Shown here in pieces: positions 20,422 through 32,304 of a stretch of DNA of 46,329 nt; the first letter of the stretch is position 1, and each line of letters opens with the position of its first letter. The position numbers and the translations under genes were made by a program. The stretch is taken from contig CAZUFG010000002.1 in assembly GCA_964618655.1 (NCBI GenBank), forward strand, positions 1-46,329, in the 5' to 3' direction. Origin of the DNA: an uncultured Candidatus Bathyarchaeia archaeon. Lineage in GTDB: Archaea; Thermoproteota; Bathyarchaeia; Bathyarchaeales; Bathyarchaeaceae. The notes under the pieces are model-generated. The model was given only the letters and a program-made list of their open reading frames with translations. It was not told where the DNA came from and made no database searches.

Positions 20422-20816
20422 ACAACATTGTCGAGGATGAACCCCCATGGTCTGCTATTTCCATTTTCTGACAAGAATTTTGATTCTGGCCTCTTTAAAC
20501 GGAGCCCACCACAAGCTTCTTCAACAAAACAAAACCAGCCTCAAAGTCCGATTTCAACCCTCCCGCTAGACTCCCTTCTAGGCTAACTCGCAAATTTTTT
20601 CTTCTGGGTCAGAATCAAAGGACACCTCTACAAAGGCTACCATGAATGCCCACTCTGCGGCAGACAAACCACTTAAGGCCCTTTATTGTTTAACCTCACA
20701 AATCGCTTTAATGATTCGGAATCTGAATTAAACAGATTAACTCTCCATATTTTATCTTCACAAACTTAATTTTTAACTCTTTCCAGAATTATTAATGCAA
20801 CACAGGAGACTGTTAA

Positions 20817-20978
20817 ATGAAAACCAAGAAAGCCGTCATCGTAATCCTACTAGTTAAGGAAAGTCAGTTGAAATCCAATGAGGAGATTGAGAAGGAAATA
20901 TTTGAAAGCCTTTCGAAAGGTGTGCCCAGAATCCCATGGCTCGCAGAAGTTGAAAAAGTCACAGTGTGGGAAAGATAA
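20817..20978 (+). CDS. Small hypothetical protein (53 aa)
   Basis: Below the track size cutoff. ATG preceded by GGAGAC. Sequence is MKTKKAVIVILLVKESQLKSNEEIEKEIFESLSKGVPRIPWLAEVEKVTVWER. No family recognised. Confidence 0.35.
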   Translation: MKTKKAVIVILLVKESQLKSNEEIEKEIFESLSKGVPRIPWLAEVEKVTVWER

Positions 20979-21111
20979 AGGTCGCCTTTGAATTATAACT
21001 TACAAATATTCTACATCTGATTCTGAATAATCTTTCGAGACGAAAAACTTAAAAACTGTTCAAATGCAAATTTGAAGCCCCCAATAGGGGGAACTACTGG
21101 AGAGTCTCGCA

Positions 21112-21456
21112 ATGCAAAATGTGGTTTTAAGCGAAGCGTTGGAAGATAAAGTGTTTAAAGACATTCAAGCAAGGATTGTTAAAAGTTTCTTAGACGTGAT
21201 GGTACTCATGGAATTGAGGAATAAACCGCTTGGCGGATACAATGTCATCGCATTCATCTACAAAAAATTGAATATTCTACTCAGTTCTGGCACGGTTTAT
21301 TCTCAGCTCTATTATCTTGAAAGGAACGGGTTGATAAAAGCCCATCCAAATCAGAGAAAAAGGGAGTACACTTTGACTGAAAAAGGCAAAGAAACCGTGA
21401 GAGCCATTCTGAATATTCGAGACAAAGTCAAAGTTCTGGTACAATATATAATCTAA
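21112..21456 (+). CDS. PadR-family winged-helix transcriptional regulator
   Basis: LMELRNKPLGGYNVIAFI...SSGTVYSQLYYLERNGLIKAH...REYTLTEKGKE is the PadR signature. Confidence 0.85.
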   Translation: MQNVVLSEALEDKVFKDIQARIVKSFLDVMVLMELRNKPLGGYNVIAFIYKKLNILLSSGTVYSQLYYLERNGLIKAHPNQRKREYTLTEKGKETVRAILNIRDKVKVLVQYII

Positions 21457-21497
21457 AAAAACTCTAACCCCCCATTTCTCTTACATCAAGAAAATAC

Positions 21498-21554
21498 ACA
21501 CGCGCACACGCTCCTAGACCATCCCATATATGATCCAACTAGGATCCAAATATG
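21498..21554 (+). repeat. 57-nt dispersed intergenic repeat, copy 2
   Basis: ACACGCGCACACGCTCCTAGACCATCCCATATATGATCCAACTAGGATCCAAATATG matches the reverse complement of 4120-4176 at 50 of 57 positions. Confidence 0.85.
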
Positions 21555-21640
21555 TCACGCCCACTACGCCACATTCTCAAAAAACGAGAACTGCCAGGAT
21601 CAGAAAAAAAGGGAAGATTGCGGGGGATATCACCCCGCTT

Positions 21641-21668
21641 GCGTGGGTTCAAATCCCCCCCGGCGCCA
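21641..21668 (+). pseudogene. Truncated tRNA-like fragment (T-arm, acceptor 3' strand and CCA) duplicating the 3' end of tRNA-Ser
   Basis: GCGTGGGTTCAAATCCC-CCCCGGCGCCA equals 20392-20421 except for a 2-nt deletion that breaks the T-stem. No matching 5' acceptor strand lies upstream. It is preceded by a hairpin (21620-21638) and a sequence resembling tRNA-Ser intron 1. Confidence 0.7.
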
Positions 21669-21721
21669 AAAATATCTTTTTCAACAAACCCGCAGTCTAG
21701 GATCTGAATGTTTAGGGAGTT

Positions 21722-22348
21722 TCATTTAAGTGGATTCACATTCTTCTCTACATCGACTTCTTCTGCCCAAAAGACCCATTTTTCTCCATTTCTAACTGGT
21801 ATCTCTGGGAAAAAGCCTTCTCGTTCAAACTTCTCCCTTATCAAGTCGGTAATCTTCTTGTATAAGAAGAAGGTTAGATCTTCAAAAGTCCATCTTCTTT
21901 TGGGCAGACTGGTTCTGTCAAAATTAGTTTTCAATCGATCCTTGTTTGTCTTTATGATTTTCGCTACCTCTCCAATGATCTTAGTGAGAATGGGTTCTAG
22001 GGTCTCCAGATCTGACTTCAAGACTACTGGAAAACTGGGCGAATAGTATTTTTCCCTTTTGAACGCTCTTCCGCTTTCGGGAACCTCAACTTCCTTAATT
22101 AAACCTTCGTTTAACAAATCAGCAACATGTTTGTAGATGGCTGGCTGTGACAGCCCTATTTCCTTCGCAAGTTGAGTCACGGTTTTCGGCTCCTTGTAGA
22201 TTTTGTTAATGATGATTTGGCGAGTTTCTGACGATAATGAGCCAGACCTGCTGACATAAGACCAGGGATCTTCTATGGAGTTTATGCAACTGCAAGAAAA
22301 TTTCAATATGTGTGTTTCACCGTTTCTTTTGCTCATTTGTTGCGTCAC
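21722..22348 (-). CDS. ArsR/TrmB-like winged-HTH transcriptional regulator with an uncharacterised C-terminal domain
   Basis: TRQIIINKIYKEPKTVTQLAKEIGLSQPAIYKHVADLLNEGLIKE is an ArsR-type HTH. 208 aa. Confidence 0.75.
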   Translation of the reverse strand: MTQQMSKRNGETHILKFSCSCINSIEDPWSYVSRSGSLSSETRQIIINKIYKEPKTVTQLAKEIGLSQPAIYKHVADLLNEGLIKEVEVPESGRAFKREKYYSPSFPVVLKSDLETLEPILTKIIGEVAKIIKTNKDRLKTNFDRTSLPKRRWTFEDLTFFLYKKITDLIREKFEREGFFPEIPVRNGEKWVFWAEEVDVEKNVNPLK

Positions 22349-22472
22349 CGTGAGAGAATAAATAACCGCAAGGTTAATAACCTTTCCGTTATAATAATAG
22401 AGAACAAGAAGGAGGGAGACTGTAATAAAGAAGAGCAGTCATATCAAGAAGATTCCGCATATCACCATTGGC

Positions 22473-22835
22473 GTGTCAGATTTAAAAAAGTCTGTGTCTT
22501 TCTATCAGGATGTTGTCGGTCTTGAGAAATTAGGCGAATGGCCCGCTTACGCACTTTTTGACGCCGCCGGAGTGACGTTTGGCTTGGAGCCAAAAGCTAA
22601 ACTGGATATTTGCTTTCTCGTCGATGACCTGGACAAAGCCTATCAAAATCTCAAAGATAAAGGAGCCAAATTTGTTACTCCACCGAAAGATCAATCATGG
22701 GGTGCCCAAGCCGCTACTTTCTTTGACCCTGACGGAAACAGAGTCACCATTGAAACGTTCCACTGTAAAGTCTGCGGCAAAACCTGTCAGAGTTATCGCG
22801 AGTTCCTTGAAGAACACCTAAGAAAACACAAATAA
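22473..22835 (+). CDS. Glyoxalase/bleomycin-resistance (VOC) family protein with a C-terminal C2H2-like zinc-finger tail
   Basis: VSDLKKSVSFYQDVVGLE...ATFFDPDGNRVTIE is a VOC fold. The tail is FHCKVCGKTCQSYREFLEEHLRKHK. Family similarity seems to extend upstream of the GTG (IPHITIG), so the start is uncertain; the frame is open from 22401. Confidence 0.75.
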   Translation: MSDLKKSVSFYQDVVGLEKLGEWPAYALFDAAGVTFGLEPKAKLDICFLVDDLDKAYQNLKDKGAKFVTPPKDQSWGAQAATFFDPDGNRVTIETFHCKVCGKTCQSYREFLEEHLRKHK

Positions 22836-26489: not shown

Positions 26490-26903
26490 ATGAATAACCT
26501 ACTGAAATATTGGTTTCCTTTGATAGCGGTCTTGACTCTAATCTTCATCGGTTCTTCTTTGCCTGGTCAGATATTAGCGCAAGAGCCTCTTTTGCCCACG
26601 CTACCGAGCACGTTAGAGCATATGGCTGAGTTTTTCATTCTGGGCGTGTTTATGTATCGGGCATTAAAGGCAACAAAGGTTGGCAGATTTAGCCTAGAAT
26701 TGGCGGTTCTTTTAGGAAGCTTTTACGGCTTCACTGATGAGTTTCATCAACTTTTCGTTCCAGGACGAGTGTGTAGCCCACTTGACCTTGTTTTCGATAT
26801 TATTGGTTGCGTCATCGGTGTATTACTCATGCGATTAGTTGTTTCTGTAAGGAGGATAAAGCAGACGGACAAAGATTTTACCCATAGTGCGATACGTTTA
26901 TGA
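26490..26903 (+). CDS. VanZ-like membrane protein
   Basis: 137 aa with four TM segments. FTDEFHQLFVPGRVCSPLDLVFDIIGCVIG is the VanZ signature. Confidence 0.8.
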   Translation: MNNLLKYWFPLIAVLTLIFIGSSLPGQILAQEPLLPTLPSTLEHMAEFFILGVFMYRALKATKVGRFSLELAVLLGSFYGFTDEFHQLFVPGRVCSPLDLVFDIIGCVIGVLLMRLVVSVRRIKQTDKDFTHSAIRL

Positions 26904-27913
26904 GCAAACTAATCCTAGTGTCTCTTTCCAACTCTGGTGGAAACGACGTGTCTAAGGCTCCTATAATTCAAACACAGGATCTCACCAAGAAATTCGGAAA
27001 ACTGACTGCAGTTGACCACCTAAACCTCACTATAGAAGAGGGCGAAATCTTCGGCTTACTTGGACCAAACGGTGCAGGCAAAACAACGACCATACTGATG
27101 CTCACGACCGTAATCCGACCAACCGAAGGAACAGCCACAGTAGACGGATTCGACATCAAAAAATCACCCCATAAAGCCCGTGAACTGATTGGTGTCTGCT
27201 TCCAAGAACCTAAGCTTCTCTGGATTAGCACCGCATGGGACGTTCTTAACTGGCATGCCAAGGTCTGTGGGCTTTCCACTCAAGAACGCAAGAGAAGAGT
27301 CAAGTGGGTACTGGAAGAATTGAACATGTGGGATGACCGTCGCAAGAGCGTTCACGCCCTCTCTGGAGGGATGAAGAAACGTGTAGAAATCGGAAAAATC
27401 CTCATCCAGAGGCCAAAGATAGCCATTGTAGACGAACCTACCGCCCAGATCGATGTGGTTGGAAAACACAGAATCTGGAATATGCTCCGTGACTTGAGGG
27501 AGGAGGGGTCAACGATAATTTTGGCGACGAACGAGCTTCAAGAAGCGGACATCCTTTCGGAGAGAGTTGCCATAATGCATAAGGGCAAGCTGCTCGTGTG
27601 CAACACGCCTAAGAAGCTGAAGGACAGCATACCAGGCGGCGACGTCATGGAAGTTCAGCTGGAAGAAGAGGCTCCAGACAGGGTTTTTACTGAACTGCAA
27701 GCTTTCAAGGAAGTTGTCAACGTCAAAAAAATAGGTTCCACCCAACTGCTGCTGTACCTAAACCAAGTTGAGGCTGTGATGCCAAAAATAATGAAACTAT
27801 TCTATGACCGTAGCCTGCGAATATCTTCCATACACATGAGTGAGCCCTCCTTAGATGATGTGTTTGCGCACTTTACTGGCTTGACTCTGGAAGAGGCACA
27901 AAAAGGGTATTAG
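26900..27913 (+). CDS. ABC transporter ATP-binding protein (ABC-2/DrrA-like exporter)
   Basis: Walker A is GPNGAGKTT, the signature is LSGGMKKRV and Walker B is IAIVDEPTAQID. ATGA overlap with the VanZ gene. Confidence 0.92.
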   Translation: MSKLILVSLSNSGGNDVSKAPIIQTQDLTKKFGKLTAVDHLNLTIEEGEIFGLLGPNGAGKTTTILMLTTVIRPTEGTATVDGFDIKKSPHKARELIGVCFQEPKLLWISTAWDVLNWHAKVCGLSTQERKRRVKWVLEELNMWDDRRKSVHALSGGMKKRVEIGKILIQRPKIAIVDEPTAQIDVVGKHRIWNMLRDLREEGSTIILATNELQEADILSERVAIMHKGKLLVCNTPKKLKDSIPGGDVMEVQLEEEAPDRVFTELQAFKEVVNVKKIGSTQLLLYLNQVEAVMPKIMKLFYDRSLRISSIHMSEPSLDDVFAHFTGLTLEEAQKGY

Positions 27914-27918
27914 AGGCT

Positions 27919-28713
27919 GTGGCGGTGGGCTTAAGAAGACTCTGGTTTGTGATTGAACGCGACCTGCGCATGTTCATTCAGTATAAGTTTCTGTTGATCA
28001 TGCGTGCGATATGGTTTGTTGCGCAAGTAGCCTTGTTTGGGCTTATTGTTAACAAGATGGTTCAAGACGCTGCTACAGAGGTGGGTATAAGCTACTTTAA
28101 TTATTATGTGGCTGGAGTAACCATAATAACATTGTATTCCACAGCCATGTTCATTGGGTACGACATTTTTGAGGAAGCTGAACACGGCGTGTTTGAATAT
28201 TTGCTAACGCTTCCCGTGAGCCGAAGAGAACTTGTGTTGGGGCGGTCGATAGGCGGAGGGCTGCGCAGTTTCATCTATGTTGGACCTTTGCTTGTGGTTT
28301 CCTTGTTTATTTTGGGCGTTTCAAATCCGATTTATTTGCTTGTTGCGGTTGCTTCTCTGTTCTTGTTCGCTTTTGGTGTTTCAGGTATGAGCATCACGTT
28401 AGCCGTGGCTATGAAGTCTGGCGACAAGTTCGACATAGTTACAGGTGTGTTGGACGCCTTAATTGTGCGGTTGAGCACCACGATGTATCCTGTGCTTTAC
28501 TTGCAGCGGGCTATGCCTGCCTACGCTTCAATCGCTAATTTTAATCCGCTCACTTATGCCTCTGACTTGTTCCGCTGGGGTACTGGAGTTGAGGGGGTTC
28601 TTCAATTCAGTCCGTTAGTTGGTGTTCTTGGGCTTTTCGTGTTCTTTTTTGCCTTCACCTTTGTTGGTGTGGTTTTCTACGAGAGAAGGCTTGAAGGAGG
28701 TAGCTGGGAGTGA
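27919..28713 (+). CDS. ABC-2 type transporter permease
   Basis: 264 aa with six TM segments. It directly follows the ATPase gene. Confidence 0.8.
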   Translation: MAVGLRRLWFVIERDLRMFIQYKFLLIMRAIWFVAQVALFGLIVNKMVQDAATEVGISYFNYYVAGVTIITLYSTAMFIGYDIFEEAEHGVFEYLLTLPVSRRELVLGRSIGGGLRSFIYVGPLLVVSLFILGVSNPIYLLVAVASLFLFAFGVSGMSITLAVAMKSGDKFDIVTGVLDALIVRLSTTMYPVLYLQRAMPAYASIANFNPLTYASDLFRWGTGVEGVLQFSPLVGVLGLFVFFFAFTFVGVVFYERRLEGGSWE

Positions 28714-29474
28714 AAGCTATTTTGCACGTCATCGAGTACGATTTTAGGAATTTCTTTCGTTTCAGATGGTTTGTTATCGGGCTCATCGCTATGAATTTGG
28801 CTGACCTTTTCATTAGCGCCGTGGTTTTTACTCAGATGACGAGTGTCGTGGATTATTTTCGGTTCTTTGCTCCGGGTTTGGCGGTTGTTGGGCTTTTTGC
28901 GTCGGCGTTCATGATTGGCAGAGAAATCAACATGGAGGTGCGTCGAGAGATTCATCATTACATGCTTAGTTTGCCCATGACTCGGACTGAGTTGGCTGTT
29001 GGGCGGGTTTTGGCTGGCGGGTTGAGGGGCATGCTTTACATGACGCCTTTGTTGATAACTAACTTCGTCGTGCTTCGTTTTCCTTCTCTGCCTCAACTTT
29101 TGCTGATACTTTTGACGCTGTTGTTGTTAGCCATTGGGATTTCTGGGGTCAGCATTTCGATCGCGGTTTCGACCACGAGTTTTGAGAAGTTTGTGACTGC
29201 TAGGGGCGTCGTGTACTATATGCTGTTCTTCTGTAGTTCGGTCTTCTACCCGTTGTCGGTCATACAAGTACTCAATACAAAGGGGCTGGGACCGTTGGTC
29301 ACTTTTGCGCAGGTCAACCCCCTGACCAACGGTTCGGACCTGATTCGTTCCTTCCTGCTTGATTCGCCTGAGTACGTTTTTTCACCGTTGATGTTGTTGA
29401 ACGTAGCCATCTTCTGTGGGATATTCGCCCTTCTCGCAACCCTTGCATACGCGAAGATTCTTGAGAGGCAATAG
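28710..29474 (+). CDS. ABC-2 type transporter permease (second subunit)
   Basis: 254 aa with six TM segments. It looks paralogous to the preceding permease (LPMTRTELAVGRVLAGGLRG versus LPVSRRELVLGRSIGGGLRS). GTGA overlap. Confidence 0.8.
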   Translation: MKAILHVIEYDFRNFFRFRWFVIGLIAMNLADLFISAVVFTQMTSVVDYFRFFAPGLAVVGLFASAFMIGREINMEVRREIHHYMLSLPMTRTELAVGRVLAGGLRGMLYMTPLLITNFVVLRFPSLPQLLLILLTLLLLAIGISGVSISIAVSTTSFEKFVTARGVVYYMLFFCSSVFYPLSVIQVLNTKGLGPLVTFAQVNPLTNGSDLIRSFLLDSPEYVFSPLMLLNVAIFCGIFALLATLAYAKILERQ

Positions 29475-29658
29475 AGCGTAGGGAACGTTTGTTAACGAGA
29501 CAGGTTCCTGAAGCATAAGCACCGTTCCAATGTTAACTTCCACAAAGTCTCTTTTTTCCTATTTCCTTCACAACTTCCTTATTTTCTAAAAATCTCCAAG
29601 AATCTTCCTTATTCAGCGAATGGAAATAGAGCAAAAATCTAGATTTATTCTTACAGAA

Positions 29659-29671
29659 ATTATTATATAAG
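29659..29671 (+). promoter_or_regulatory. TATA-like box for the AT-rich module (probably a leaderless transcript)
   Basis: ATTATTATATAAG is centred about 23 nt upstream of the ATG at 29688. Confidence 0.45.
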
Positions 29672-29687
29672 CAGCACCTATTTACTA

Positions 29688-30005
29688 ATGAACCGAACTA
29701 CTATGAAGAAAGCGGAGCGGTCACGTCTAGAAAGTCAAATTCAAATTTCTCTAGAAGAATTGCGAATCAAATTATGTTTTAAAGAAGAAGTTGAAGAAAA
29801 TAACCTGTTTTTAGCAGCGGGTCTTACTTATTTCTTTGGAGTGCTTTTTGCATGTTTGACCGAAGTAGTTGAGAGATATTTTGGTGTAGTTTTGATTTTG
29901 ACCGCAATAATGATAGTTTGGTATTTGAGAGACAAAAGAAAAGAGATACGAAGAAAATTTGAGAAAGAAATAGAATCGCTATCAAAAGGAGAGCGGAAAA
30001 TCTAA
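29688..30005 (+). CDS. Small membrane protein (charged N-terminal segment, two TM helices, basic tail)
   Basis: 105 aa. The hydrophobic stretches are LFLAAGLTYFFGVLFACL and FGVVLILTAIMIVWYL. It lies in the AT-rich region. No family recognised. Confidence 0.55.
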   Translation: MNRTTMKKAERSRLESQIQISLEELRIKLCFKEEVEENNLFLAAGLTYFFGVLFACLTEVVERYFGVVLILTAIMIVWYLRDKRKEIRRKFEKEIESLSKGERKI

Positions 30006-30037
30006 ATTTACGTTAGTGCAACATTATTTGGATTCGT

Positions 30038-30145
30038 ATGCTCACGTGGGAAATTCAAGTAACATGGGTTCTCATCTCAGTCTTCATTGCAATTTTCCTA
30101 ATTGCTGAAAGAATCCGAAGACGAAAGTTACAACAATCTGCCTAA
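30038..30145 (+). CDS. Possible 35-aa single-TM micro-protein
   Basis: Not in the track. Sequence is MLTWEIQVTWVLISVFIAIFLIAERIRRRKLQQSA, a TM helix followed by a basic anchor. Coding status unproven. Confidence 0.3.
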   Translation: MLTWEIQVTWVLISVFIAIFLIAERIRRRKLQQSA

Positions 30146-30276
30146 TAATAACGAACTTAAAGCCTTAATATCCTTTAGAGGTGAACAGAAATAGAACCAG
30201 AAGTTCACATAATTGAGAAGTTTTTCAAGAACGATAGGTTTTTGTGGAGACTACGACTAATAACCATTGATTCAAA

Positions 30277-31140
30277 ATGTCCTACTATCATGTTATTGTA
30301 AGTTTAAAAAGCAGACCTCATAGAGGTGCTATTGAAGAAAATCTTCTCGAACAAGATTTAATGAATATAATAGTCAAGCCTTATAACAAAGGTGAGCCAT
30401 TCAAATGCGGTGATACTGTAGTAAATCGAGACGACATATCATACATAAAGATAACCGAAAGTGAGCGAATTCTTGGTCGTGACCATGTGTTCGTGTCACC
30501 TCAAAATGCCTTTGCAAATCTTTGGCATGCAATAAGTCAACAAGAAGATGTTACGGATAAATTCCTTAAAACGATTTCGCACAGAAAAAAAGAAACTGTA
30601 AAGGAAATTACACCTTTTTCAAAAAACAAAGTGTTTATTGTTCATGGCAGAGACCACGAACCAATGAAGGAACTAAAAGAGATGCTTTATGATTTTGGTC
30701 TCAAACCTATAGTTCTTCATGAGCAACCGAGTGGAAGCAGAACAATAGTTGAGAAACTTGAAAAATACTCTGATGTTGGCTATGCCTTTGTAATTCTAAC
30801 TCCAGATGATGTAGGATGCTTAAGAGACGAATTTAGGATAAACACAATGAAGTTCCTTGCAATTTGTGAAGATTCGAGAAAAGTGAAACAAGCCATAAAT
30901 AGTTTTAAAGAGATCGTAAAGACACCAAAACAAAGAGCACGCCAAAACGTTGTTTTGGAATTTGGCTATTTCATGGGATTGCTTGGTCGTGACCGAGTGT
31001 GTTGTTTACTAAAGGGAGACGTCGAAAAACCTTCTGACATGCATGGAATAGTGTACATACCTTTCAATGACTCAGTTGAAGAAGTTCGAGTCAAAGTAAT
31101 GAAGGAACTTATGGAGGCTGGCTACGAAATCAAAATGTGA
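30277..31140 (+). CDS. TIR-like domain protein (COG4271 / PF10137 Cap12-PycTIR-type) with an unknown 115-aa N-terminal domain
   Basis: The C-terminal domain has KVFIVHGRDHEPMKELKEMLYDFGLKPIVLHEQPSGSRTIVEKLE...YAFVILTPDDVG...ARQNVVLEFGYFMGLLGRDRVCCLLKGDVEKPSDMHGIVYIPF. This matches the remembered family consensus (VFIVHG, TPDD, RQNVxxElGYF with the catalytic Glu, PSDxxG). Confidence 0.75.
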   Translation: MSYYHVIVSLKSRPHRGAIEENLLEQDLMNIIVKPYNKGEPFKCGDTVVNRDDISYIKITESERILGRDHVFVSPQNAFANLWHAISQQEDVTDKFLKTISHRKKETVKEITPFSKNKVFIVHGRDHEPMKELKEMLYDFGLKPIVLHEQPSGSRTIVEKLEKYSDVGYAFVILTPDDVGCLRDEFRINTMKFLAICEDSRKVKQAINSFKEIVKTPKQRARQNVVLEFGYFMGLLGRDRVCCLLKGDVEKPSDMHGIVYIPFNDSVEEVRVKVMKELMEAGYEIKM

Positions 31141-31183
31141 GAAATGCAAAAGAGTTATAGCAGAACCTTTTTACCTCACAACC

Positions 31184-31879
31184 TTAGCGATGAACTACTT
31201 CCTTTTTGATGACTTTACAGAAAATGCTGGATTCGTCCACTTCTATGATCGCCGCGTTCAACCCGAATTCATCGAACAACTCAACGAATTGGTCACCGCT
31301 GACAGTAGTAGCTCTAAAACCATCCTTGCACACGATTGTTCCATCACGCGTCTCCTCATCATCTATTTCTCCTATAAGACCAAACCGTGATTGTTTTCTA
31401 AACCATCCTAGACGCGCTTCCCATATTCTCGGAGAATAGCTCGAAAAGAGAATAGTCCCATCGTCTTTTGTCACCCTTATGGATTCGGCGATGAGACGTT
31501 TCTTGTCGACCCCAAACGCGGATATGCCGTTTTGAATACAAAATACCGCATCAAAAGTACGTGAACGAAATGACATCTGAGACGCATCCATCAGAAACAC
31601 CGTATAGTTTTGACAACTGTCCATGTATGACCTCGCAAGTTCTAAACTTTCCTTTGAAATGTCATTTCCAACAATCCAAGAAACAAACTCTGACACCGCT
31701 TTCATAACTCTACCATAACCACATCCAAGTTCGAGAACCAAACCTGTACCACGAAGATTGGAAATGACGAATTGGATTTCTGCGTCAAGATATTGTTTGA
31801 TTCTCGTAGGAGCTATCTCATAACATCTAAAGAGCTTATCAGCTGAAAGCTTCTCTCTGTAATAAGTGCCTTTGTGCAT
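31184..31879 (-). CDS. Class I SAM-dependent methyltransferase
   Basis: Motif I is VLELGCGYGR, followed by DAVFCIQNG. 231 aa. It converges on the TIR-like gene. Confidence 0.85.
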   Translation of the reverse strand: MHKGTYYREKLSADKLFRCYEIAPTRIKQYLDAEIQFVISNLRGTGLVLELGCGYGRVMKAVSEFVSWIVGNDISKESLELARSYMDSCQNYTVFLMDASQMSFRSRTFDAVFCIQNGISAFGVDKKRLIAESIRVTKDDGTILFSSYSPRIWEARLGWFRKQSRFGLIGEIDDEETRDGTIVCKDGFRATTVSGDQFVELFDEFGLNAAIIEVDESSIFCKVIKKEVVHR

Positions 31880-32293
31880 AGAACCTTTTAAGAAAAATTC
31901 AAGATTTAAATTCGTCGAGTGTCTTGCCTTCCAAAACAGGCTACTCTCAAAAATTTTTCTTCTCGTCTTTCACGTTTTTGCAGAGATAAGATATATAAAA
32001 GAGGCAACACATTAAACCTTCCCTTTCTCTCTTTGGTTTGCATCTTGTTATGGCGCAACCTGAAGGTGAAAAATAAAAATTCCAGAGAATGAAGGCTAAG
32101 TAAATGTGTAAGATTAGAAGTGGAGAAAGAACTTGTCGGAAATGTCCAGCAAGAATATATTGCACAGATAAGAAAACTAGGAGAAGATAATCAAACCCTC
32201 TCAAGTGTTTAATCTGGATAATCCATCCAGACAAATCCCTAAATCAACATACCCTAAACAGTTTTTGTAAATAACAGTTTCTGCAGAGATAGG

Positions 32294-32304
32294 TTTATAT
32301 AAAA
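32294..32304 (+). promoter_or_regulatory. TATA box of the uS13 operon promoter
   Basis: TTTATATAAAA lies about 50 nt upstream of the ATG at 32353, preceded by a purine-rich BRE-like GAGATAGG. Confidence 0.5.

Follow-up and report, generated by a model that had tools for sequence, protein, structure and literature searches.

The window analysed here is a stretch of 46,329 nucleotides (nt) from an uncultured Candidatus Bathyarchaeia archaeon (contig CAZUFG010000002.1, positions 1 to 46,329). It carries, in close succession on the forward strand, three open reading frames (ORFs) that encode a protein of 105 amino acids (aa) with two transmembrane (TM) segments, a peptide of 35 aa with a single TM segment, and a 287-aa protein with a C-terminal TIR-like domain (Table 1). 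The G + C content of the window is lowest at this point (0.345-0.357 at 29.5-31 kb, staying at or below approximately 0.40 out to 32.5 kb, versus approximately 0.45-0.50 elsewhere). A first-pass annotation had described this most AT-rich stretch as part of an acquired island and the three ORFs as one candidate defence module. The ORFs, the minimum in G + C content and the setting in a variable low-GC stretch were all recovered, but the three genes were not found to travel together in other genomes. The locus is probably best read as two independent units, an archaeal TIR-like single gene of the PDC-S35 family (30232-31140) and a separate membrane pair (approximately 29660-30145), whose adjacency would be coincidental; the TIR-like protein itself would most likely be an abortive-infection NADase.

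The membrane pair and the TIR-like gene

Each of the three ORFs is a genuine gene and not a chance reading frame. For the 287-aa protein, 5178 homologues were found at E<=1e-3, and many are full-length proteins with 45-66% identity. The 105-aa protein has 42 homologues with 65-85% identity, and its two hydrophobic segments (residues 40-57 and 66-80), flanked by charged termini and ending in a basic C-tail, agree with the two TM helices first proposed. The proposed start does not hold equally well: the real start is probably Met6 (ATG 29703), because the homologues begin with MKK and the upstream ATG falls within a conserved leader. The first five codons of the annotated ORF (29688-29702) overlap this non-coding leader, TGACCGAAC, whose motif (TGACCGA[AC]C) lies 4-6 nt 5' of the MKK start in nearly all loci with the pair. 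The A/T box reported upstream of the first ORF was also found, approximately 29 nt upstream of the leader, and an A/T-rich box occupies the equivalent position (approximately 30 nt upstream) in other loci; box and leader may act together as the promoter of the membrane pair.

The 35-aa ORF, initially regarded as only possible, is intact in 14 distinct loci, where the 105-aa homologue precedes it by 45-65 nt. Its ML[PTS]WEIQ start is invariant, one hydrophobic segment and a basic tail complete the peptide, and its substitutions are in excess at third codon positions (1040 versus 644 and 594). In approximately six further distinct loci, the two-TM gene is present without the peptide.

The co-occurrence of the three ORFs was analysed in 44 loci. 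In all, 12 distinct loci with a TIR homologue were compared, nine archaeal or metagenomic (including five from Bathyarchaeia metagenome-assembled genomes, MAGs) and three on bacterial plasmids, and none of the 12 carries either membrane ORF within 6 kb. The neighbours of the TIR homologues are mutually unrelated across these loci, with no neighbour in common, and the bacterial full-length homologues have no small membrane neighbours. Conversely, none of the approximately 19 distinct loci with a 105-aa homologue has an adjacent TIR gene, and the 35-aa peptide is the sole conserved neighbour there.

In addition, the TIR-like gene has a conserved upstream region of its own. A box at -45 to -33 (CGATAAGTTTTTG) and TGATTCAAAATG at the start codon are kept in eight loci (the window at 30232-30279, L008, L010, L011, L012, L016, L018 and L021), even where the N-terminal domains of the encoded proteins are just 30-34% identical. 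This box may be a family-specific promoter or operator. The possibility that CGATARGTTTTTG is a generic promoter of the window genome was ruled out, as it gave one exact match and its matches with two mismatches were at chance level. Considering the lack of co-occurrence and the separate promoter-like boxes, the two units seem to be transcribed separately and to occupy the same variable stretch.

These observations bear directly on the alternative that the locus is a three-gene defence or abortive-infection operon, with the small membrane proteins as partners of the TIR-like protein, either as membrane sensor or as effector. The common strand, the gaps of 32 and 131 nt and the common low G + C content are what drew attention to it, and it could also draw on PF10137 genes within 3.4 kb of a membrane ORF in two other distinct loci (the L001/L041 contig and L034), on a homologue of the N-terminal domain that ends in hydrophobic segments (P0177) and on a sub-threshold holin-X match of the two-TM protein. 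Against this stand the absence of either membrane ORF within 6 kb at all 12 TIR-homologue loci, the absence of an adjacent TIR gene at all of the approximately 19 membrane-ORF loci, the absence of a conserved neighbour besides the 35-aa peptide, the occurrence of the TIR upstream box in loci without the pair, and the bacterial full-length homologues without small membrane neighbours, in a family that PADLOC files as a single-gene candidate. A three-gene system was rejected on the lack of co-occurrence in the 44 loci, and we regard such an operon as highly improbable.

The membrane pair remains well conserved (65-85% identity in aa, 70-82% in nt) while every flank differs, and its DNA homology is confined to 29702-30127. 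Elsewhere it is flanked variously by integrases, ORFans and housekeeping genes, with integrases near it in L001, L004 and L034 and an ORFan/housekeeping junction in L029 and in the window, which suggests that the pair lies where variable or integrated regions begin or end. Neither membrane ORF gave a family match above threshold in the Pfam, NCBIfam, PADLOC and PHROG scans, the pair was found on no IMG/VR viral contig, and no inverted or direct repeats were found to bound the cassette. A holin identity of the 105-aa protein was considered and dropped, as its match to holin-X (PF07332) reached 18.6 bits against a cut-off of 28.4, no PHROG holin matched and the protein is absent from IMG/VR contigs. 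Our best guess is that the pair is a small toxin/antitoxin-like, holin-like or exclusion cassette.

Downstream of the 35-aa ORF and ahead of the TIR gene is a conserved 40-nt intergenic element, present in single copy within the window. Copies with 84-97% identity precede membrane-ORF homologues in L004/5/6, L026 and L038, where they run on the other strand (L004 4789-4829, L026 960-1002 and L038 1220-1250, all on the minus strand). In L004 and L026, a divergent HEPN_AbiV gene lies approximately 80-120 nt downstream of the element. Cargo genes beside the membrane pair may have this control element in common. The spacer at 30146-30290, including the fold of the element, yielded nothing significant for tRNA, Rfam families, flanking repeats or RNA structure.

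It is worth weighing whether the pair is itself an active mobile unit (toxin/antitoxin-like, holin-like or involved in superinfection exclusion) at the edges of Bathyarchaeia integrative elements, with the TIR gene as one of many cargoes. Its strong conservation amid differing flanks, its frequent position near integrases or at ORFan/housekeeping junctions, its holin-like form (a two-TM hairpin with a charged C-tail) and the element held in common with an adjacent HEPN_AbiV gene elsewhere would all fit. The lack of a family match above threshold, the absence from IMG/VR viral contigs, the approximately six loci with the two-TM gene alone and the lack of bounding repeats argue the other way, and we put this forward only tentatively. 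It is compatible with the two units being independent and does not exclude that reading.

Table 1. Features of the membrane pair, the TIR-like gene and the surrounding low-GC stretch (window coordinates)
Feature	Position	Strand	Basis
Variable low-GC stretch, flanked by a conserved ABC-transporter operon and by the S13/S4/S11/RpoD operon	29480..32300	.	GC 0.345-0.40
Promoter-like region of the membrane pair: A/T box 29660-29670 and leader motif TGA(A)CCGAAC 29689-29698	29660..29698	+	Recurrence in loci with the pair
105-aa two-TM hairpin membrane protein (probable true start ATG 29703, giving 100 aa)	29688..30005	+	42 homologues
35-aa single-TM peptide that forms a conserved pair with the 105-aa protein	30038..30145	+	14 distinct loci
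Conserved 40-nt intergenic element, TAGAACCAGAAGTTCACATAATTGAGAAGTTTTT...	30192..30231	+	Copies, 84-97% identical, in other loci
Upstream box of the TIR-like gene, CGATAGGTTTTTG (-45 to -33) ... TGATTCAAAATG	30232..30279	+	Conserved in 8 loci
287-aa TIR-like protein	30277-31140	+	5178 homologues
N-terminal domain (residues 1-100), small alpha/beta, putative regulatory/sensor module	30277..30576	+	AlphaFold model, conservation, fusions
Disordered linker (residues 101-117)	30577..30627	+	pLDDT <50 at residues 101-113
PF10137 Cap12/PycTIR-type TIR-like domain (residues 118-264) and C-terminal helix	30628..31140	+	Pfam, Foldseek and profile matches
Helical insert of the archaeal subfamily (residues 181-216), after the TPDD strand and before the RARQNV motif	30817..30924	+	AlphaFold model, alignments
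Codon of Glu228, putative catalytic glutamate	30958..30960	+	Invariant in 85 homologues

Domains and family of the 287-aa protein

The C-terminal half of the 287-aa protein belongs to the PF10137 TIR-like family, as first supposed. The Pfam match has an E-value of 2.8e-35 (121.4 bits against a gathering cut-off of 24.7) and aligns residues 118-264 with profile positions 1-118 of 119; the motifs KVFIVHG, ILTPDDVG, RQNVVLEFGYFMG and KPSDMHGIVYIPF are all found in the protein. An AlphaFold (AF2) model built with 85 homologues as input has a mean predicted local distance difference test score (pLDDT) of 85.7. In a Foldseek search against the PDB, its top seven matches were TIR-STING/Cap12 TIR chains (9lmq, 9lmr and 7un8; E=3e-5 to 1e-3), and these were the sole significant ones. 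Sequence and profile searches of the PDB likewise retrieved Cap12 and PycTIR chains, with the query RARQNVVLEFG aligned on R-D-N-V-x-x-E-F-G. E228 thereby aligns with the glutamate of NVVFEFG in Cap12 and of NVHLEFG in PycTIR, and E228, R220, R222 and N224 are invariant across the 85 homologues.

The long insert that had been remarked upon between the TPDD and RQNV motifs is real. It was modelled as two helices (residues 183-197 and 200-214, pLDDT approximately 88-94), varies in sequence among the 85 relatives and is missing from the bacterial full-length members.

The architecture had been thought to be without a known counterpart, which proved not to be the case. The whole protein matches the PADLOC model PDLC05004 of PDC-S35 (residues 1-286 on profile positions 1-260 of 265, E=1.4e-66), four further PDC-S35 models (PDLC05007, 05005, 05006 and 05003) match at 8e-64 to 6e-46, and PHROG 16442 matches at E=6.8e-53. 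The PDCs are 145 "phage defence candidates", untested, that were taken from genes sitting within BREX, DISARM and Type I restriction-modification (R-M) loci (Payne et al., bioRxiv 10.1101/2024.01.29.577857); our literature search found no paper mentioning PDC-S35. Like its other members, the window protein matches over both domains, is encoded by a single gene without a conserved partner, and has relatives near R-M systems and on mobile elements. Its closest relatives are found in Bathyarchaeia MAGs. The relatives on bacterial plasmids (Acinetobacter, Komagataeibacter and Bacillus) are also full length but only 29-33% identical over residues 3-287; they lack the TIR helical insert of approximately 35 aa, and they have EHG at the catalytic glutamate where the archaeal protein has EFG. 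Bacterial members of PDC-S35 include WP_160126742.1, from pAhaemAN59a, and WP_102325912.1, from pKOB1. In databases, the family is named only "predicted nucleotide-binding protein". The sole exact database entry for the gene (P0011) is a 158-aa product that begins at Met130 (MKELKEM...); this public gene call apparently truncated the product within the TIR domain, so that all of the N-terminal domain was lost.

Several characterised systems use the same TIR subtype. CBASS Cap12/TIR-STING proteins (SfSTING 7un8; 9lmq) share the PF10137 domain and the R-x-N-V-x-x-E-F-G motif, are the best structural match, and probably also share NAD+ hydrolysis activated by oligomerisation. However, the window protein has no STING domain and ends 23 residues past the TIR domain, its regulatory domain is N-terminal and unrelated, no CD-NTase operon is present, and it scores 33-34 bits against a cut-off of 450 with the Cap12 NCBIfam equivalogs, over residues 215-274 only. 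The Pycsar effector PycTIR (8jsj) shares the PF10137 effector domain (PADLOC PycTIR model, E=6.8e-11; PDB chain, 1.3e-5), but the match is restricted to the TIR part, with no cyclic-nucleotide-binding Pfam domain and no PycC cyclase nearby. Unlike Thoeris (ThsB with a ThsA-type effector), the locus has no SIR2/SLOG, macro or other effector nearby and the homologous loci have no conserved neighbour. In agreement with the first-pass annotation, Pfam and PADLOC scans of the ORFs from approximately 21 to 35 kb found no cyclase, STING, SAVED, ThsA or other partner within approximately 9 kb. Thus, membership in Cap12, PycTIR or Thoeris was ruled out by the lack of a STING domain, cyclic-nucleotide-binding domain, cyclase or effector.

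The N-terminal domain had been said to match nothing recognisable. It indeed has no Pfam match even at E<=1 and no significant PDB fold neighbour in a Foldseek check of its model (best E=0.6), yet the PDC-S35 models cover it, so that the architecture itself is already catalogued. A BFVD search returned only weak matches to small uncharacterised phage proteins (best E=5.7e-3), none of them significant. The domain is confidently modelled, with a pLDDT of approximately 90-98 at residues 1-60 in the full-length model and, when modelled alone, a pLDDT of 86.6 and a predicted template modelling score (pTM) of 0.77. Its secondary structure runs beta-beta-alpha-beta-beta-beta plus helices, and Y4, H5, K11, P35, I57, I59 and T93 are kept from archaea to bacteria. 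This order, together with weak PDB matches to a superantigen beta-grasp, suggested a ubiquitin-like beta-grasp; with a best E-value of 0.6, we do not claim it.

The N-terminal domain is modular. It is carried by 112 of the 120 top homologues of the 287-aa protein, and a search with residues 1-115 against 1.84 billion representatives found it fused to an HNH nuclease (P0165, 380 aa), to a PNP_UDP_1 phosphorylase/nucleosidase-type domain (P0183, 486 aa) and possibly to hydrophobic C-terminal segments (P0177, 172 aa), as well as alone or as fragments. Conversely, in P0090, P0092, P0094 and P0113 a TIR domain 65-68% identical to that of the window protein is joined to an unrelated, all-helical N-terminal module of approximately 110 aa (LLDYIEK.I.DL...), which indicates recent swapping of N-terminal modules on one effector. 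A sensor or regulator that is coupled to an effector would be expected to show such two-way swapping. Apparent repeats of the domain in the giant proteins P0169, P0171, P0175 and P0182 were set aside as spurious short-motif matches (ER.LGRDHP in TPR-CHAT proteins; PYKCGDT repeats), and a TM fusion in P0181 may be a frameshift artefact.

Genomic surroundings of the gene and its homologues

The homologues of the TIR-like gene are found in contexts typical of accessory defence cargo. An MmeI-type R-M enzyme adjoins it in L016, a PIN toxin and a TIR_2 gene adjoin it in L018, and in L050 it lies directly 3' of a Type ISP R-M enzyme, and a RES toxin is close by. Integrases occur near a TIR homologue in L021 and near a PF10137 gene in L001, and the homologue of L049 is on a small plasmid. 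The prophage and plasmid genes annotated as TIR-like domain-containing or nucleotide-binding proteins (PHROG 16442; E. coli phages vB_EcoM-689R2 etc.), whose TIR domain is 35% identical over residues 118-284, are likewise carried as accessory cargo, and 59 viral contigs of IMG/VR have the TIR domain, with most copies matching the TIR half only. Considering these R-M, toxin-antitoxin, integrase, plasmid and prophage contexts, the earlier designation as a candidate defence gene appears reasonable.

In the window, the locus is flanked by an ABC-2 transporter, a class I S-adenosylmethionine (SAM) methyltransferase encoded in the reverse orientation and the S13/S4/S11/RpoD operon. DNA homology with four close relatives (L045-L048) stops at 29477-29496; their permease is 87-91% identical to that of the window, and a Succ_CoA_lig gene follows approximately 90 nt after their ABC operon, which places the left edge of the variable stretch just past the permease stop. 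The ABC-2 transporter operon (26888-29496) has 80-85% nt identity to L045-L048 and yet differs in both flanks; because of this, it either sits at a synteny breakpoint in the window genome or has been relocated there. No tRNA gene was found in the window and no flanking direct repeats around the low-GC stretch, and the ORFs scanned between approximately 21 and 35 kb included no integrase.

The remainder of the low-GC stretch holds the methyltransferase gene (31184-31879, minus strand, GC 0.42), which has a homologue in none of the loci examined and whose PADLOC "mad2" match is generic, and a low-GC 95-aa ORF (31947-32234, minus strand) without a homology signal that is probably no gene. Further upstream there are housekeeping enzymes and two winged-helix regulators. 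These regulators, one PadR-like (21112-21456) and one ArsR/MarR-like (21722-22348, minus strand), lie in a second low-GC stretch at 20500-22500 (0.38-0.42); their PADLOC Csa3/CARF matches are limited to the helix-turn-helix part, and no CRISPR or defence gene was seen there.

Proposed function and significance

Under the preferred reading of two independent units, the TIR gene would be self-contained, with its own upstream control box and a product composed of an N-terminal domain of approximately 100 aa, a linker and the PF10137 domain. The N-terminal domain would either keep the enzyme inactive or detect a cue of infection, TIR-TIR oligomerisation would follow activation, and the active site around Glu228 would then hydrolyse NAD+, so that the infected cell and the virus are starved in an abortive infection. 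The second unit would be a two-gene cassette of a two-TM hairpin protein and a single-TM peptide of 30-36 aa. It recurs in related archaea, in variable regions that often bear integrases, and its position beside the TIR gene would reflect chance co-residence in a variable hotspot.

The reality of the genes, the domain and family assignments, the single-gene status, the missing linkage and the modularity of the N-terminal domain are shown by the data above. The enzymatic part of this proposal, with the mode of activation, the trigger and the defence phenotype, is inferred from the characterised relatives Cap12 and PycTIR. The PF10137 TIRs form one clade, in which SfTIR-STING depletes NAD+ via a catalytic glutamate and the CAP12/Pycsar TIRs turn into active NADases through oligomerisation (bioRxiv 10.64898/2026.04.30.722052). 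An alternative is that the protein is not an NAD+-depleting suicide enzyme but makes a signalling nucleotide as in Thoeris, acts on another nucleotide or nucleoside, or is a nucleotide-binding regulator with a role outside defence. Phylogenetic similarity among TIRs does not predict their chemistry, and the clade members TirB and TirD are without NADase activity (bioRxiv 10.64898/2026.04.30.722052); the database name refers to nucleotide binding alone, the fusion of the N-terminal domain to PNP_UDP_1 fits nucleotide-directed chemistry in general, and the gene lies beside core genes with no integrase found nearby. However, no conserved adjoining effector is present to read a signal, the closest characterised relatives, Cap12 and PycTIR, deplete NAD+ (bioRxiv 10.64898/2026.04.30.722052), the catalytic motif is intact and invariant, and R-M, toxin-antitoxin, integrase, plasmid and prophage genes abound in the genomic contexts. 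We therefore consider a different chemistry or role unlikely, though by no means negligible.

Several points weigh against the proposal of an independent, NAD+-depleting defence gene. TirB and TirD keep the glutamate and yet are inactive in vitro (bioRxiv 10.64898/2026.04.30.722052), so that its conservation is no guarantee of NADase activity, and the PDCs are explicitly untested (bioRxiv 10.1101/2024.01.29.577857). The N-terminal domain has no characterised relative, its role as a sensor is conjecture, and the inter-domain geometry of the 287-aa model is uncertain (pTM 0.58). The island adjoins core genes, without an integrase among the scanned ORFs and without detected repeats. Finally, in two of the approximately 19 distinct loci with the pair, the only two that have a PF10137 gene within 6 kb, this gene precedes the membrane ORF by 2.5-3.4 kb (L001/L002/L041 contig, 1856-2545; L034, 2134-3129). 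These genes are never adjacent to the pair and have a different N-terminus, not the domain described here; the one in L001 directly follows an integrase. A loose association of the pair with TIR genes through shared defence islands is thus conceivable, and in these archaea the pair may be a marker of hotspots for defence or integration.

At this locus, adjacency and shared low G + C content are insufficient to define a system. If the PDC-S35 proteins are confirmed as defence NADases, the family would extend into the uncultivated Bathyarchaeia, where antiviral immunity is barely known, and the locus supplies an archaeal variant with a distinctive insert. This insert and the modular N-terminal domain are the points that remain of interest. 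The N-terminal domain is the more useful lead, as it has a confident structure without a Pfam family or significant PDB match, occurs in both prokaryotic domains and is joined to several effector types. We advance, as a speculation that is less likely to be right than the reading above, that this domain (M-x-Y-Y-H-V ... P-Y ... I-x-I ... D-V-T-x-x-F) could be an undescribed infection-sensing or adaptor module of bacteria and archaea with swappable killing domains (PF10137 TIR, HNH, PNP-type nucleosidase and possibly TM). Its proteins would then form a new family of one-protein immune sensors, to which the Bathyarchaeia branch would have added a TIR insert that could alter oligomerisation or regulation. 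The conservation of the domain and its combination with several effectors would be the signature of a sensor module worth characterising.

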